DNA of 64,000 nt from a virus. Where the stretch lies: the IMG/VR virus record IMGVR_UViG_3300008050_000019; one strand, written 5' to 3'. Under the pieces are notes generated by a model, which did not search any database, was not told the DNA's origin, and was given only the letters and a program-made list of their open reading frames with translations. Within the stretch, counting starts at the first letter, position 1; each line of letters starts with the position of its first letter. The position numbers and the translations under genes were made by a program. This document shows, piece after piece, positions 231-28,548 of the stretch.

Positions 231-313
231 CCCAGGCTCACCCCTAATAAACCAGATATTTTATCATATAACCCCTTATTTTAATAGGTCCAGTTTATTA
301 GGGGTGAGCCTGG
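231..313. repeat. long-stem hairpin element (family copy 1)
   Basis: 22-bp perfect stem 231-252 / 292-313 (cccaggctcacccctaataaac); 39-nt loop nearly identical to copy 2. Confidence 0.6.
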
Positions 314-465
314 GAACACTGGTTAAACACCTGAATAAAAGATATAATCCTTATTCGATTTCGGTATCAGCTAAGTAAAGGTACATTGCAATTGAGGACC
401 TCACTTTACGAAATTTCTGGTGGATGTGATTCAATACAAACGTCATATGAAACTACTTTCTTAGC

Positions 466-756
466 TTAAGAATCTTCGACCATCTCAGTCGGATACCACA
501 AAGTATCAGGAGGTGAATCATCTTCATCACAATGCCCGACAAGAGCTCGAAAACTTTCGCGCTCAAGGACGCGATACTCAGCAAGATAGCCCTTCTGCAC
601 TTCTGCTAAGCTCAAGAATGCCTTCAACTCAGGAGTTCTTGCCATAGATAATGCATGTGCAATGATCTCTTCGTCAGTTTTCATTAAATTTAACCTCAAT
701 GATCTCTTGGACTCGGTGCAATGACCAGCCAGCTTTTCGTGCTGCAGCTGCTGCAT
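466..756 (-). CDS. hypothetical protein
   Basis: ORF track; no recognisable motif; possible internal start at MKTDEEII. Confidence 0.4.
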   Translation of the reverse strand: MQQLQHEKLAGHCTESKRSLRLNLMKTDEEIIAHALSMARTPELKAFLSLAEVQKGYLAEYRVLERESFRALVGHCDEDDSPPDTLWYPTEMVEDS

Positions 757-916
757 TCGTCAATAAGCCAAAAATGATAGTGTTAAGTAGGGTGGGACTA
801 GATGTAGCCCCAGTGTGGCCGAACTCTACACGTCCGGCCGCAGGTAGAACCGTTTGTTCCGTTTTCATATTAATATTATATAACAAGCATAGAAACTTTA
901 TTACATAATATTAACA

Positions 917-1387
917 TCATTTAAAAAATTCTGAGTACTTTTTTCCGTCTCGGGTAAAATATGCTTCAACCGGTTGACCCGCTCTAGTGCTTCTTGCAGG
1001 ACCAGCCCACTCATAACTGCGGCATACACCATCGTCATAAAATGTCTCGTCTGCAGGTCCATCATCTCTAGAAAGCTTGCCCTTCATATAATATGAAGTA
1101 AAGTGTTTATTGCCGTTGCTATAGAATCCCTCTATTGCAGGACCTCCAATGCGGTGCAGGTGCCCAAACTGTTTGTACTCGCGCCTAAGTATTTCACCAC
1201 TTTTGTACCATATAATGGCAGGACCACCTTCACGATGAAGCTTGCCATTCACTCTGAATTCTTCTCTGTCGAGCCGGCCAACATGATCAAAATGACGCAC
1301 TGCAGGACCACCTTCACGATGAAGCTTGCCATTAAGCTTGTAGGTTTCTCGCTTTAGGGTCCCATCTTTATAAAATGCTTGTTCCAT
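917..1387 (-). CDS. MORN-variant repeat protein
   Basis: ~23-aa tandem repeats of 'NGKLHREGGPA' / 'GHLHRIGGPA' type, consistent with bacterial MORN-variant (G-x-x-H-R-x-x-GPA) repeats; paralogue of 5940..6368. Confidence 0.55.
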   Translation of the reverse strand: MEQAFYKDGTLKRETYKLNGKLHREGGPAVRHFDHVGRLDREEFRVNGKLHREGGPAIIWYKSGEILRREYKQFGHLHRIGGPAIEGFYSNGNKHFTSYYMKGKLSRDDGPADETFYDDGVCRSYEWAGPARSTRAGQPVEAYFTRDGKKYSEFFK

Positions 1388-1395
1388 ATTTAGAG

Positions 1396-1578
1396 CTAAT
1401 GCTTTCTGTCATCAGAAATGACTACGCCCGGGACTTCCCTTTCTCCGGATTTTAAGTTGAATTTGCTTAAAGTGACTTTAAGTCGCCTATCATCAATTAG
1501 TTTTTGTGCTTCCGCATTTGAGATATGACCAAAACATAACGCTGCCGCTATTGAAAAATCACCTGTAGGTATAGACAT
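1396..1578 (-). CDS. hypothetical small protein
   Basis: ORF track only. Confidence 0.3.
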   Translation of the reverse strand: MSIPTGDFSIAAALCFGHISNAEAQKLIDDRRLKVTLSKFNLKSGEREVPGVVISDDRKH

Positions 1579-1592
1579 ATCTGGCCTCTAAC

Positions 1593-25969: not shown

Positions 25970-26776
25970 TTACGCGGCTTCGATCTCTGCTAATTGCTCT
26001 AAAGAGGGCTCTGCGGATTCACTAGTAATATCACCGGCCGCTGCTGCCTTAACTGCGTCTGCAGCAAGTGTTAAGGCTTCACGCTCAATGCGCTTTTCTT
26101 CACGGCGCGCTGAAGCAATCTGGCTCTGAATGTTATATTCACTGGTATCATCTACATGATTGTCGACACCAGCGACTAAAACATCACTATCAAGAATTTC
26201 GCCATCGAGCATTGCTGTTCCTGCAGAAACTTTAAAGATCATACGCTTTGATTTCGCATTTCCTTCATACACTTCGCCGTACCCAGTAAACACAACACTC
26301 GTTTGACGAGGGACATCCATGATGCCATCTCGTAAAGTCTTGCGGCTAAATTGATAGCTGATTAACTGTGTGCCCTTGTCAGGATTAGTTGGTTGAAGGC
26401 CAAGGTTAGCGACGACATTGAATGTATCACCCTCATTGAACTTCTTTTTCTTTGTCTTTGCTTTTGTCTTTGTTGGAGTAATTTGCATAATAGTATCCTT
26501 TTTTGTTTTGGTAAAAATTTTAGGTGAACCAGATATTTTAAGCATCTGGTGTAGAATGGCTAAATGAAATTTGGGAGCACCTTGAACAGGCATCAAAGAT
26601 AATGCCTGAGCGAATAATATATCGATGCGGTCTTTTTTATCAAGAGGGCATGATTTAAGTAATGCTGTAGATACTGGGGTCCCATCATTAACGAGTTGAA
26701 GCGCTTTAGTGATGATTTCTCCAATATCCGTATTAACCATATAAAGAATTATATTACTATAATTCACCTTAGGCAC
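25970..26776 (-). CDS. hypothetical protein
   Basis: 268-aa ORF; Lys/Thr-rich linker in the middle. Confidence 0.4.
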   Translation of the reverse strand: MPKVNYSNIILYMVNTDIGEIITKALQLVNDGTPVSTALLKSCPLDKKDRIDILFAQALSLMPVQGAPKFHLAILHQMLKISGSPKIFTKTKKDTIMQITPTKTKAKTKKKKFNEGDTFNVVANLGLQPTNPDKGTQLISYQFSRKTLRDGIMDVPRQTSVVFTGYGEVYEGNAKSKRMIFKVSAGTAMLDGEILDSDVLVAGVDNHVDDTSEYNIQSQIASARREEKRIEREALTLAADAVKAAAAGDITSESAEPSLEQLAEIEAA

Positions 26777-26779
26777 ATA

Positions 26780-27517
26780 TTAATAATTTTTTGTTGCGAC
26801 GTTTGATCCAGCAGGGGATGGATGGTAAAGTTGTTTTGTGGTGGTTGTGTAACCATAATCGAGGATGACGATTCGACCATCAGGAGTTTGCCCCCATTGT
26901 TCTTCGCGGCTCAAGTCGTCAATGACAAGTTCAGTCGTCTTTAAAAGAGAAATCAAAGATTCAGCAAACGAGAAGCACTCTTCATTACAATATTCAGTGT
27001 AATCTTCTTTCTTTCCGCCCCCCATCAGGCCTTTGACTATAAGCGTAATACTGTATAAGCTTGTCCCAAACCTACTCTCGAAAACGTCCTCAGCGCCTCT
27101 GTCCATTGGACGAACAAGCTCTGCTATTAACCATGAATAATCATCGCTATAGTTTGCAATTTTTGTAGTTAACTGCTTTGTTGCAGGGTTAGTGAAAATG
27201 TCAATCTCAGCTTCATTTTGCGCGATCCCTTTTTTATTGTAAGCAACTTTTAGTACATATCTCGTATTTAAGATGTAAGCCTTACGAGATGACCCTGCAT
27301 CAAATTTCTTTAATGTATTATTAGCATACGCAACAACATCTTTTACAGAAGTTAATGACTTCAAATGCTCTAACCTAAATGGTCTCTTCCGCTCTTCAAT
27401 TACAAATTGAACATATTCTTCCAATATTCCCATATTATGTACATATGGCTGTGCTTGTATGAATTGCCTATTTGAGCGTCTTGATAACTTCTTTTTTCTT
27501 AGCTTCTTTTTCGTCAA
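26780..27517 (-). CDS. hypothetical protein, possible atypical kinase-like fold
   Basis: 'FDAGSSRKAYILNTRYVLKVA' resembles a Gly-rich loop plus VAIK Lys, and 'IVILDYG' resembles the DFG region; weak. Confidence 0.3.
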   Translation of the reverse strand: MTKKKLRKKKLSRRSNRQFIQAQPYVHNMGILEEYVQFVIEERKRPFRLEHLKSLTSVKDVVAYANNTLKKFDAGSSRKAYILNTRYVLKVAYNKKGIAQNEAEIDIFTNPATKQLTTKIANYSDDYSWLIAELVRPMDRGAEDVFESRFGTSLYSITLIVKGLMGGGKKEDYTEYCNEECFSFAESLISLLKTTELVIDDLSREEQWGQTPDGRIVILDYGYTTTTKQLYHPSPAGSNVATKNY

Positions 27518-27791
27518 GAATATTATGCTGGTTTATAATTTCGTCAACCGTTGCATTAATAAAGTTGTGATCAGGTTTCACGTTTAAATTGTTTAATAAA
27601 TTAAATAACAACATCCTCATTAAGCCTTTTCTACATGAAATATCTTCATGTTCCGAACTTGAAACAGTAGCATTTGATTCTCTCATAGCATTAGCAATAA
27701 GAATGCTATGATCTCTTTGATCACCACCAAGAACCCAAGGAATGAACTTAAACAGTGTAGCGATGTCTAATAAAGCTTTGTCAACATTCAT
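27468..27791 (-). CDS. hypothetical protein
   Basis: ORF track. Confidence 0.35.
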   Translation of the reverse strand: MNVDKALLDIATLFKFIPWVLGGDQRDHSILIANAMRESNATVSSSEHEDISCRKGLMRMLLFNLLNNLNVKPDHNFINATVDEIINQHNILDEKEAKKKEVIKTLK

Positions 27792-28093
27792 TCAGCTACC
27801 CATAATTCATTCGAGTCTAATACAGGCAACGAATTAATTGTATCACTATCATATGATGTATACTGATCCCAGCCAAGAGAAATTCTGTAACGAAGAGGTA
27901 CAATTAATAACCCTCTTGGATCTGGTTTTTGGCCAAAATGGCCTGTTGTCTTCGAGTAATTCGAGTTTACTTTGGGGCGATCAAGTTTTGCAGATTTTTG
28001 CTTATTCAAGCCCAGTATATCACATGTTTCATGAGCATGCTCTTTTGTTTCAAAAAAGAGTTTTATTGTTCTTTGTTTTTTCTTTGTTGCCAT
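27788..28093 (-). CDS. hypothetical protein
   Basis: ORF track; 4-nt overlap with neighbour. Confidence 0.4.
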   Translation of the reverse strand: MATKKKQRTIKLFFETKEHAHETCDILGLNKQKSAKLDRPKVNSNYSKTTGHFGQKPDPRGLLIVPLRYRISLGWDQYTSYDSDTINSLPVLDSNELWVAE

Positions 28094-28405
28094 TTAGTTG
28101 TTATCCGTCGCTTCTTCATCCCATGTTATAGAGATAAGACCAGTATTTTGAGGAACTCTTTTTTCATGTAAGCCCTCGTGATTAGCTTCGCGGCCGCAAG
28201 ATACAGCAAGCGCATGCATGATATTAGTTGTTGCAGTGCAAACATCTTCTTCAGCCCATTCATCGTCGGAACCTTTTAAAAGCTCAACGCTCTTATTTGT
28301 ATCACCACCCCGAGGAGTATTTCTGTGCTCCATTGGTCCTGCTTTCCTATGTTTAGCAACGACTGCAACCCAATTTCTAGGCTTGTTTCTTGCAGGTTTT
28401 TTCAT
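28094..28405 (-). CDS. hypothetical basic protein
   Basis: ORF track. Confidence 0.4.
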   Translation of the reverse strand: MKKPARNKPRNWVAVVAKHRKAGPMEHRNTPRGGDTNKSVELLKGSDDEWAEEDVCTATTNIMHALAVSCGREANHEGLHEKRVPQNTGLISITWDEEATDNN

Positions 28406-28468
28406 TACAAGTATATTATATAACGATCAAAACATTATTGCATATTATGTAAATTATATTGAAATCAT

Positions 28469-28548
28469 CAGGCTCACTTCTAATAAACGGAATAATTTTA
28501 TATAGGCCAATATGATTTTAACATCTAAGTTTATTAGAAGTGAGCCTT
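28469..28548. repeat. long-stem hairpin element (family copy 3)
   Basis: 19-bp stem 28470-28488 / 28529-28547 (aggctcacttctaataaac), 40-nt loop; intergenic between minus-strand genes. Confidence 0.55.

Follow-up and report, generated by a model that had tools for sequence, protein, structure and literature searches.

Repeated long-stem hairpins between the genes of an uncultured marine jumbo phage, a candidate family of transcript-processing elements

Three hairpins with closely related arms lie between the genes of a 64,000-nt stretch of DNA (the window) from the virus of IMG/VR record IMGVR_UViG_3300008050_000019, an uncultured marine phage, and the question raised by this locus is what function one long stem may have at several scattered gene boundaries. 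The window corresponds to record positions 219707-283706 of the 308,593-bp contig ena:ERZ27249009:k141_306648, and the same DNA was found in several JGI and Logan assemblies. An earlier sequence-only reading had described the hairpins as a phage-specific repeated terminator or processing element. The DNA read in the present analysis comprises the window, about 9.5 kb to its left and about 9.6 kb to its right (83 kb of the contig). The hairpin family is real and statistically secure. Termination in the classical sense was not borne out, whereas a processing element, as judged from sequence patterns, is plausible and is the leading explanation.

The three intact hairpins (copies 1, 2 and 3; Table 1) were located nearly exactly where the sequence-only reading had placed them, all in intergenic DNA. 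The element is approximately 90 nt in size. The arm common to the three copies is AGGCTCAC-YY-CT-R-ATAAAC, in which the outer 8-mer (AGGCTCAC/GTGAGCCT) is invariant; the inner half of the stem and the loops are A+T-rich. A stem of 19-22 bp, as first described, is found in copies 2 and 3 (22 and 19 bp), whereas that of copy 1 reaches 26 bp, and the first arm consensus captured the shared arm but missed a G of copy 2 (ctGataaac) whose partner in the opposite arm is a C. Counted from where the left arm starts to where the right arm ends, every copy spans exactly 78 nt, so the copies can be aligned without gaps. Copies 1 and 2 are 88% identical across the 78 nt, and their loops, correctly described as almost identical, agree at 35 of 40 positions and contain a small inner hairpin (CCTTAT/ATAAGG). 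The loop of copy 3 matches those of copies 1 and 2 at just 16-17 of 40 positions, and two loop types (A and B) are therefore distinguished. The minus-strand loop motif TRTTAAAAT-N12-KATAAAAT is kept in all three intact copies.

The arm pattern has six matches in the window (three hairpins on two strands) compared with 0.05 expected from shuffles, and six perfect hairpins of at least 16 bp are present compared with none in 100 dinucleotide-preserving shuffles. RNA folds of the copies have energies of -33 to -57 kcal/mol and z-scores of -7 to -11 on both strands. The hairpins are no assembly artefact, because their sequences are identical across independent ENA, JGI and Logan assemblies from several samples. 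Several contigs in other assemblies begin or end at copy 1 or copy 2.

Three positions of the core stems vary among copies 1-3, all of them compensated in the opposite arm, and the core stems (67 bp in total) contain no mismatches. On the minus-strand RNA, copy 2 has six extra flank pairs, three of which are G.U, and copy 3 has five past one mismatch, two of which are G.U; with flank pairs the stems reach 24-29 bp on the sense strand. In the 29-pair helix of the three copies, six pairs are changed on both sides, and 94.3% of the minus-strand cells are paired; sliding the 3' partner by 1-3 columns lowers this share to 35-49%. Such compensation would mean either that pairing itself has been selected or that the arms have been homogenised by conversion.

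The pairing differs between the strands. The seven wobble cells all pair as G.U on the minus (gene-sense) strand, whereas their plus-strand counterparts are A.C mismatches and 86.2% of plus-strand cells are paired; copy 2 folds at -56.0 kcal/mol on the minus strand versus -48.1 kcal/mol on the plus strand. In duplex DNA a loop of 34-40 nt works against the extrusion of a cruciform, while RNA hairpins are unaffected by such loops. A role at the RNA level is favoured because of the wobble asymmetry, the co-orientation of four out of four copies (including a decayed copy 4, described below) with adjacent genes, and the large loops that hinder cruciform extrusion. A DNA site for a protein, for replication or for packaging, such as a cruciform or hairpin origin, a nuclease or resolvase target or a symmetric operator, is very unlikely. 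The symmetric arms with their invariant outer 8-mer would suit such a site and the A+T-rich centre could serve as an unwinding element, but symmetric protein sites need no compensated changes along 19-29 bp, and cruciform extrusion would be disfavoured by a spacer of 34-40 bp. A set of four scattered copies that includes a decayed one is also unlike an origin or pac site, and the orientation bias and the G.U asymmetry indicate RNA.

Every copy is located between a stop codon and the next gene, 20-147 nt past the stop. Nearly all genes of the window are on the minus strand; copies 1 and 3 are found between minus-strand genes and copy 2 after one. The minus-strand gene that ends at 466 has its stop 147 nt before copy 1, and a further gene, which encodes a 166-aa MORN-like protein and extends beyond the left end of the window, has its ATG (219-217) 8 nt downstream of the copy; this ATG is preceded by AAGGA, its own ribosome-binding site. 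Copy 2 was rightly said to lie between convergent genes, 6865-8523 (+) and 8652-8960 (-), and its perfect stem is 13 nt past the stop of the former and 37 nt past that of the latter. The perfect stem of copy 3 is 54 nt past the stop of 28602-28871 (-) and 64 nt ahead of the ATG of 28094-28405 (-), and a TATAAT-like box is present between the hairpin and this ATG. The copies are concentrated at -0.7 to 28.5 kb in window coordinates, a region rich in tRNAs, ORFans and MORN-like paralogues, and none is found from 28.6 to 73.6 kb.

The copies resemble intrinsic terminators in that the hairpins are 3' of genes and copy 2 stands at a convergent junction that would suit a bidirectional terminator. 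They differ in having a far longer stem, an A+T-rich inner half, a loop of 34-40 nt and no U-tract. Intrinsic terminators have a short G+C-rich stem, a loop of 3-8 nt and a U-tract that adjoins the stem on its 3' side. In copies 1-3 a U-tract is absent from either strand, and a terminator scan misses the copies; canonical terminator hairpins of this phage, G+C-rich and with a U-tract, are found by the same scan at 30653-30689 and 33395-33426. Since the phage has canonical terminators elsewhere and the copies have no U-tract, the copies are not classical intrinsic terminators, and this half of the earlier description is not supported in the classical sense. The 8 nt between copy 1 and the ATG also mean that an efficient terminator there would silence the downstream gene.

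A transcriptional insulator, consisting of a non-canonical or factor-dependent terminator that possibly carries a promoter in its loop or left arm, is a rather unlikely explanation. In this case the stem would halt RNA reading through from upstream, and the promoter would begin a new transcript. A strand-specific promoter-like motif, TGTTWW-N13/14-TRATA, occurs at eight sites in the 83 kb, all eight upstream of co-oriented genes (Table 1), and these sites look like phage promoters. Three of them are in tandem at 36.2-36.4 kb, and in layout, with a -10-like element placed 13-14 bp away from an upstream box, the sites are reminiscent of the middle (MotA-box) promoters of T4. The sense loop of copy 3 (TGTTAAAATCATATTGGCCTATATAAAAT) resembles the motif site at 15767 (TGTTAAAATGAATAATTCGTAATATAAT), the 5' flank and left arm read GTTGTT-N12-TAATAA in copy 3 and near-variants of this in copies 1 and 2, and copy 1 has no space for a separate promoter ahead of its downstream gene. 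However, no hairpin sequence satisfies the eight-site motif: the spacer of the left arm is 12 instead of 13-14, loops 1 and 2 read TATTAA at the invariant G, and the -10 part of loop 3 deviates. From the loop of copy 2, a promoter would drive antisense transcription into the 3' end of the converging gene for a 552-aa protein, and a U-tract is absent from all copies. A sigma-70 promoter within the element was rejected, as matches of a generic sigma-70 scan were not above the level of shuffles and the phage motif is merely approximated. Of 65 gene starts, only about 35% are preceded by a Shine-Dalgarno motif, even loosely defined. At many genes a TATAAT-like box is present 6-10 nt ahead of the ATG and a Shine-Dalgarno sequence is lacking (for example at the starts 5889, 15729, 28405, 28871, 29379, 30612, 45898 and 46289), which suggests leaderless or nearly leaderless mRNAs.

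A comparable order of elements is known from the promoter-early and promoter-middle stem-loops (PeSL and PmSL) of T4-type phages (PMC2839356, PMC4122927). In PeSL a short terminator stem-loop is followed by a sigma-70-like -35/-10 promoter, a Shine-Dalgarno sequence and a start codon (PMC4122927). The present elements are similarly small repeated intergenic cassettes, oriented with transcription, in a variable ORFan-rich region of a phage with T4-type genes. Copies 3 and 4 show the order of stem-loop, promoter-like box and start codon, which counts in favour of the insulator. Unlike PeSL, they have stems of 19-29 bp, a large loop and no U-tract; copy 1 is not followed by a promoter and copy 2 has no downstream gene. 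PeSL occur in multiple copies that cluster in hyperplastic regions and go together with indels between close relatives.

Table 1. Coordinates of the hairpin copies and of the promoter-like motif sites (window coordinates unless stated otherwise)
Feature	Position	Strand	Description
Copy 1, loop type A	227-318	minus	26-bp perfect stem, 40-nt loop
Copy 1 loop	253-292	minus	holds motif TRTTAAAAT-N12-KATAAAAT
Copy 2, loop type A	8531-8620	minus	22-bp perfect stem (8537-8614), 34-nt loop
Copy 3, loop type B	28464-28553	minus	19-bp perfect stem (28470-28547), 40-nt loop
Copy 4, decayed	L004 2475-2552 (~-661 to -584)	plus	same 102-nt register, gap-free
Promoter-like motif	59727	minus	(a/t)TGTGTTAA-N13/14-(CG)TAATAn
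Promoter-like motif	36410	minus	same type
Promoter-like motif	36324	minus	same type
Promoter-like motif	36239	minus	same type
Promoter-like motif	15767	minus	same type
Promoter-like motif	5923	minus	same type
Promoter-like motif	2300	minus	same type
Promoter-like motif	~-543 (L004)	plus	same type

The explanation put forward, tentatively, is that the transcribed intercistronic hairpin is a site of the RNase III type at which double-stranded RNA is processed or a 3' end is protected. According to this possible mechanism, copying has placed the element at four or more intergenic sites of the phage, and it would be transcribed within gene-sense polycistronic RNA. The RNA would fold into a nearly perfect stem of 24-29 bp with an A+U-rich loop of 34-40 nt on top, and this stem would be a substrate of host RNase III and also a block to 3'-to-5' exonucleases. 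The transcript would be cut or delimited at the cistron boundary, and the upstream message would keep a protective 3' stem and be uncoupled from the downstream message, as at the RNase III sites of phage T7. In copy 2, the Watson-Crick-perfect core at the convergent junction would serve transcripts from both directions.

Substrates of the RNase III of E. coli have a minimal length of about 22 bp, which the extended stems reach. In the sites of T7, an internal loop restricts the cut to one strand, the apical loops are short and the upstream RNA retains a protective 3' stem. The RNase III sites of T7 and T3 described by Dunn and Studier (R0.3, R0.5, R1, R1.1 and others) process both early and late transcripts. 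The elements described here are like them in being phage-specific related hairpins dispersed between the cistrons of what are presumably polycistronic transcripts, just upstream of the next ribosome-binding site, with stems of about two helical turns and no U-tract. They would also offer about 20 bp or more of double-stranded RNA, with 19-26 bp of perfect and 24-29 bp of extended stem. They are unlike the T7 sites in that their stems are uninterrupted and carry a conserved loop of 34-40 nt, and there is no sequence similarity.

Several points weigh against an RNase III-type site. Most cistron boundaries are without the element, because there are only three intact copies in 83 kb, and copy 4 was allowed to decay. 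The stems have no internal loop, unlike those of T7, and no gene for RNase III or a double-stranded-RNA-binding protein was found among the approximately 60 window proteins scanned. The core stems (67 bp) do not contain any G.U pair, which is also expected of a DNA-level or recently generated palindrome. A G.U-free core is sensible in copy 2, because transcripts converge on it from both sides, and in the other copies it may have a DNA-level origin. The wobble asymmetry amounts to approximately 4-5 independent events with p of just ~0.03-0.06, because the GTTGTT flank is common to copies 2 and 3.

The wider search for further copies that the sequence-only reading had proposed yielded one, the decayed copy 4. 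It is located about 0.6 kb left of the window and about 0.8-0.9 kb from copy 1, inverted relative to copies 1-3. Both genes flanking it are on the plus strand, and copy 4 is still co-oriented with transcription because the element and its neighbour genes are both flipped. Pairing survives at only 14 of the 29 stem positions, and the fold (z-score of -0.8) is no better than that of shuffles. The 5' flank is like that of copy 1 (8/12), while the loop and right arm are like those of copy 3 (25/40 and 14/19), so that copy 4 looks chimeric in sequence. With a four-copy nhmmer profile, no further copy was detected in the 83 kb read (window -9534 to ~73,600).

No relatives of the element were recovered from outside this phage lineage. 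A blastn search of 50,697 phage records with the elements found nothing similar, and exact and gapped patterns found no relative in IMG/VR, in which three single-arm matches were at chance level and without a second arm. Two scans of JGI metagenomes found no relative, two matches there having been dismissed as an unrelated G+C-rich hairpin and a non-palindromic chance match. In GTDB, with one genome for each of 185,579 species, both the arm pattern GTTTATYAGRRGTGAGCCTG and the whole hairpin are absent. The element is phage-specific, as the sequence-only reading held. No family of Rfam matched at its gathering threshold; the best matches were to eukaryotic miRNA-precursor models (25-44 bits versus thresholds of 60-107). 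These near-matches are precursors of eukaryotic RNase III-family substrates, that is, generic long hairpins far below threshold. A ribozyme, a riboswitch and a known small RNA were rejected, as there was no Rfam match. A mini-open reading frame in the loop of copy 1 (AAGGGG-N4-ATG and seven codons) was rejected because copy 2 has ATT for the ATG.

Copies at unrelated boundaries may also be produced by an element that moves as DNA. An origin of the copies by segmental duplication is excluded, since similarity stops at the borders of the element, and the border-limited similarity among unrelated neighbours shows that an element-specific copy process acted. Transposition is one candidate for this process, and recombination or conversion as in PeSL is another. 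A mobile or recombinogenic palindrome, MITE-like or a cassette that, like PeSL, spreads through the genome and shuffles modules, with a secondary effect on RNA, is unlikely as the main explanation, in the same degree as the insulator. It agrees with the sharp ends of the homology at the borders and the unrelated flanks and neighbour genes, with core stems that are Watson-Crick perfect on both strands, and with the decayed, chimeric-looking copy 4, which is inverted relative to copy 1. The chimeric look of copy 4 makes recombination between copies, as in PeSL, possible. All copies are in the region where ORFans, tRNAs and MORN-like paralogues abound, copy 2 abuts the end of a plus-strand cassette related to the tail module of another phage, and other assemblies break at copies 1 and 2. 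In contrast, a target-site duplication or direct flank repeat is absent at every copy, and the flanks of copies 1-3 extend the inverted repeat instead. No transposase or RAYT-type gene was detected with Pfam in the 83 kb. The recovered strains are identical at all copies, with no strain variation, empty sites or presence/absence polymorphism; an apparent difference in gene content between L026 and L027 was due to gene calling, the DNA being 100% identical. Neutral repeats would gain uncompensated mismatches, whereas all differences among intact copies are compensated, and a strand-specific G.U pattern is unexpected at a purely DNA level.

REP/BIME of enterobacteria are imperfect palindromes of 20-40 nt with a conserved GTAG-type head and an associated RAYT gene; REP elements stabilise upstream mRNA against 3' exonucleases, and the hairpins of Correia elements (a MITE of Neisseria) are cut by RNase III. 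The present element resembles REP/BIME and Correia elements as a short dispersed intergenic sequence with inverted-repeat ends and sharp homology borders that would be co-transcribed, and its perfect arms of 19-26 bp correspond to the terminal inverted repeats of MITE and Correia elements. It differs from Correia elements in having no TA target-site duplication and from REP/BIME in the absence of a GTAG-type head and, in the 83 kb, of a RAYT-like Pfam match. It also differs from both in being in a phage, in only four copies seen, and absent from all the species genomes searched. Integron attC sites, which have the core sites RYYYAAC and GTTRRRY at their ends, an imperfect stem with extrahelical bases and an integrase, are different as well, as the ends here are AGGCTCAC/GTGAGCCT, the flank GTTGTT misfits GTTRRRY and the stems are perfect. 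The dispersed hairpins are not a CRISPR array, in agreement with the sequence-only reading: the copies are unarrayed and about 0.8-20 kb apart, their arms are inverted instead of direct, and the arm is in none of the species genomes. The element lacks at least one defining feature of every named family with which it was compared.

RNA anti-CRISPRs occur in phages, and the sense-strand 5' flank GTTGTT recalls the start of some Cas9 repeats. A host-defence RNA mimic (a solitary CRISPR-repeat-like unit, a guide-RNA-like hairpin or a small regulatory RNA gene) is nevertheless extremely unlikely. Phages with solitary repeat units and single-guide-like RNAs are known (bioRxiv 10.64898/2026.06.01.729453), but neither the arm pattern nor the whole hairpin occurs in the species genomes. 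The hairpin is not followed by additional stem-loops or a terminator, copy 1 leads straight into a ribosome-binding site and start codon, and Rfam gives no match.

Termination, promotion and mobility may also be joined in one element. In a two-state, self-propagating, lineage-specific cassette, the RNA hairpin would end or cut read-through, a phage-type promoter in the loop or left arm of the DNA would restart transcription without the 5' arm, and recombination between copies would shuffle small gene modules. Such a cassette is quite unlikely; if it were true, it would represent a new architecture on the PeSL principle, with a promoter inside a terminator.

Two gene groups adjoin the copies. 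At least eight MORN-like paralogues on both strands are clustered near copies 1 and 4, at 917-1387 and 5940-6368 in the window and at L004 170-613, 617-1027, 1044-1439, 1647-2012, 1964-2437 and 2852-3352. Their proteins contain a repeated HREDGPA motif and a C-terminal EYRLxCL...GLxSTF, and the cluster looks like a hyperplastic region of paralogue expansion. A protein search with the MORN-like protein brought up no paralogue from this genome, and a concatenated query of flank proteins gave no match. The cassette next to copy 2 (6404-8523) contains two genes encoding proteins of 153 and 552 aa, the sole clear plus-strand genes in the minus-strand block of the window. These proteins are 51-85% identical to a tail-like module of a different co-occurring phage (L016 8277-10114), with 75% DNA identity over 1.15 kb. 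The version in the window carries an insertion of approximately 88 aa relative to its L016 counterpart, and the cassette is probably an exchanged receptor-binding module. The homology to the other phage stops at the stop codon, and copy 2 lies 13 nt beyond it. The only homologue found of the 552-aa protein was that of the co-occurring phage, in which the orthologous junction is without such a hairpin.

Three other hairpins were noticed. At 29183-29280 there is an unrelated hairpin with a 25-bp perfect stem, a 48-nt G+C-rich loop containing its own CUUUCGG-capped stem, and a z-score of about -8 on both strands. It is within a called 87-aa open reading frame (29116-29379, minus), about 640 nt from copy 3; Rfam gives no match for it, and IMG/VR does not contain its arm. 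A 39-bp perfect palindrome at 17840-17878, with 19-bp arms and a 1-nt centre (GGTTATCCATATGATTTAT-T-ATAAATCATATGGATAACC; fold z-score of -7.6), lies in the 43 nt that separate rIIB (17893-18900) from the next minus-strand gene. The third, at L031 974-1045 (contig ERZ1032912 NODE-836), is an unrelated G+C-rich 25-bp perfect hairpin (CCGGCTCACCTAGCTGAAACCGGCG...) with its left arm tandemly duplicated just upstream, and it was matched only via a loose search pattern.

The window encodes rIIA, rIIB, a T4-type RNA ligase, a DNA ligase, a 5'-3' exonuclease, six tRNAs and many ORFans, the latter making up about 80% of the genome. At the nucleotide level the window has no match among phage records, and the nearest cultured phages show only 35-49% protein identity. 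A sigma-70-family factor with regions 1.2, 2, 3 and 4 (37148-37999 (-)) and a full-length GroEL (43213-44874 (-)) are encoded; the GroEL is at most 49% identical to that of any phage record. An 858-aa protein (30704-33280 (-)) has the shoulder and repeat domains of the major vault protein (PF11978, 3.8e-19; PF17795). The same block also contains a MoxR-type AAA ATPase (34867-36171 (-)) and a 621-aa VWA protein with six MopE-type metal-binding repeats (39667-41532 (-)), and it is unusual phage cargo. The intergenic background is otherwise A+T-rich, but the segment 770-870 (-) is G+C-rich and folds into three hairpins (z-score of -3.3), and the spacers of the tRNA cluster at 3824-4125, 4211-4414 and 4797-4911 are G+C-rich and structured-looking. 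None of these segments gave a tRNA or Rfam call; they may be degenerate tRNAs or small RNAs.

The hairpins are a fairly ordinary kind of repeat and open no long-standing question, as dispersed regulatory hairpins are already familiar in phages. The family offers built-in covariation, and its decayed copy is a natural negative control. The element marks the borders of transcript units and modules in a genome consisting largely of ORFans, and accounts for the breaks of assemblies there. If the leading explanation of a processing or 3'-end-protecting hairpin is true, these intercistronic RNA hairpins would constitute a new sequence family, carried by a marine jumbo phage that is uncultured and has no close cultured relative, and transcript punctuation in the style of T7 or of REP elements would also be present in very large phages with T4-type early genes.

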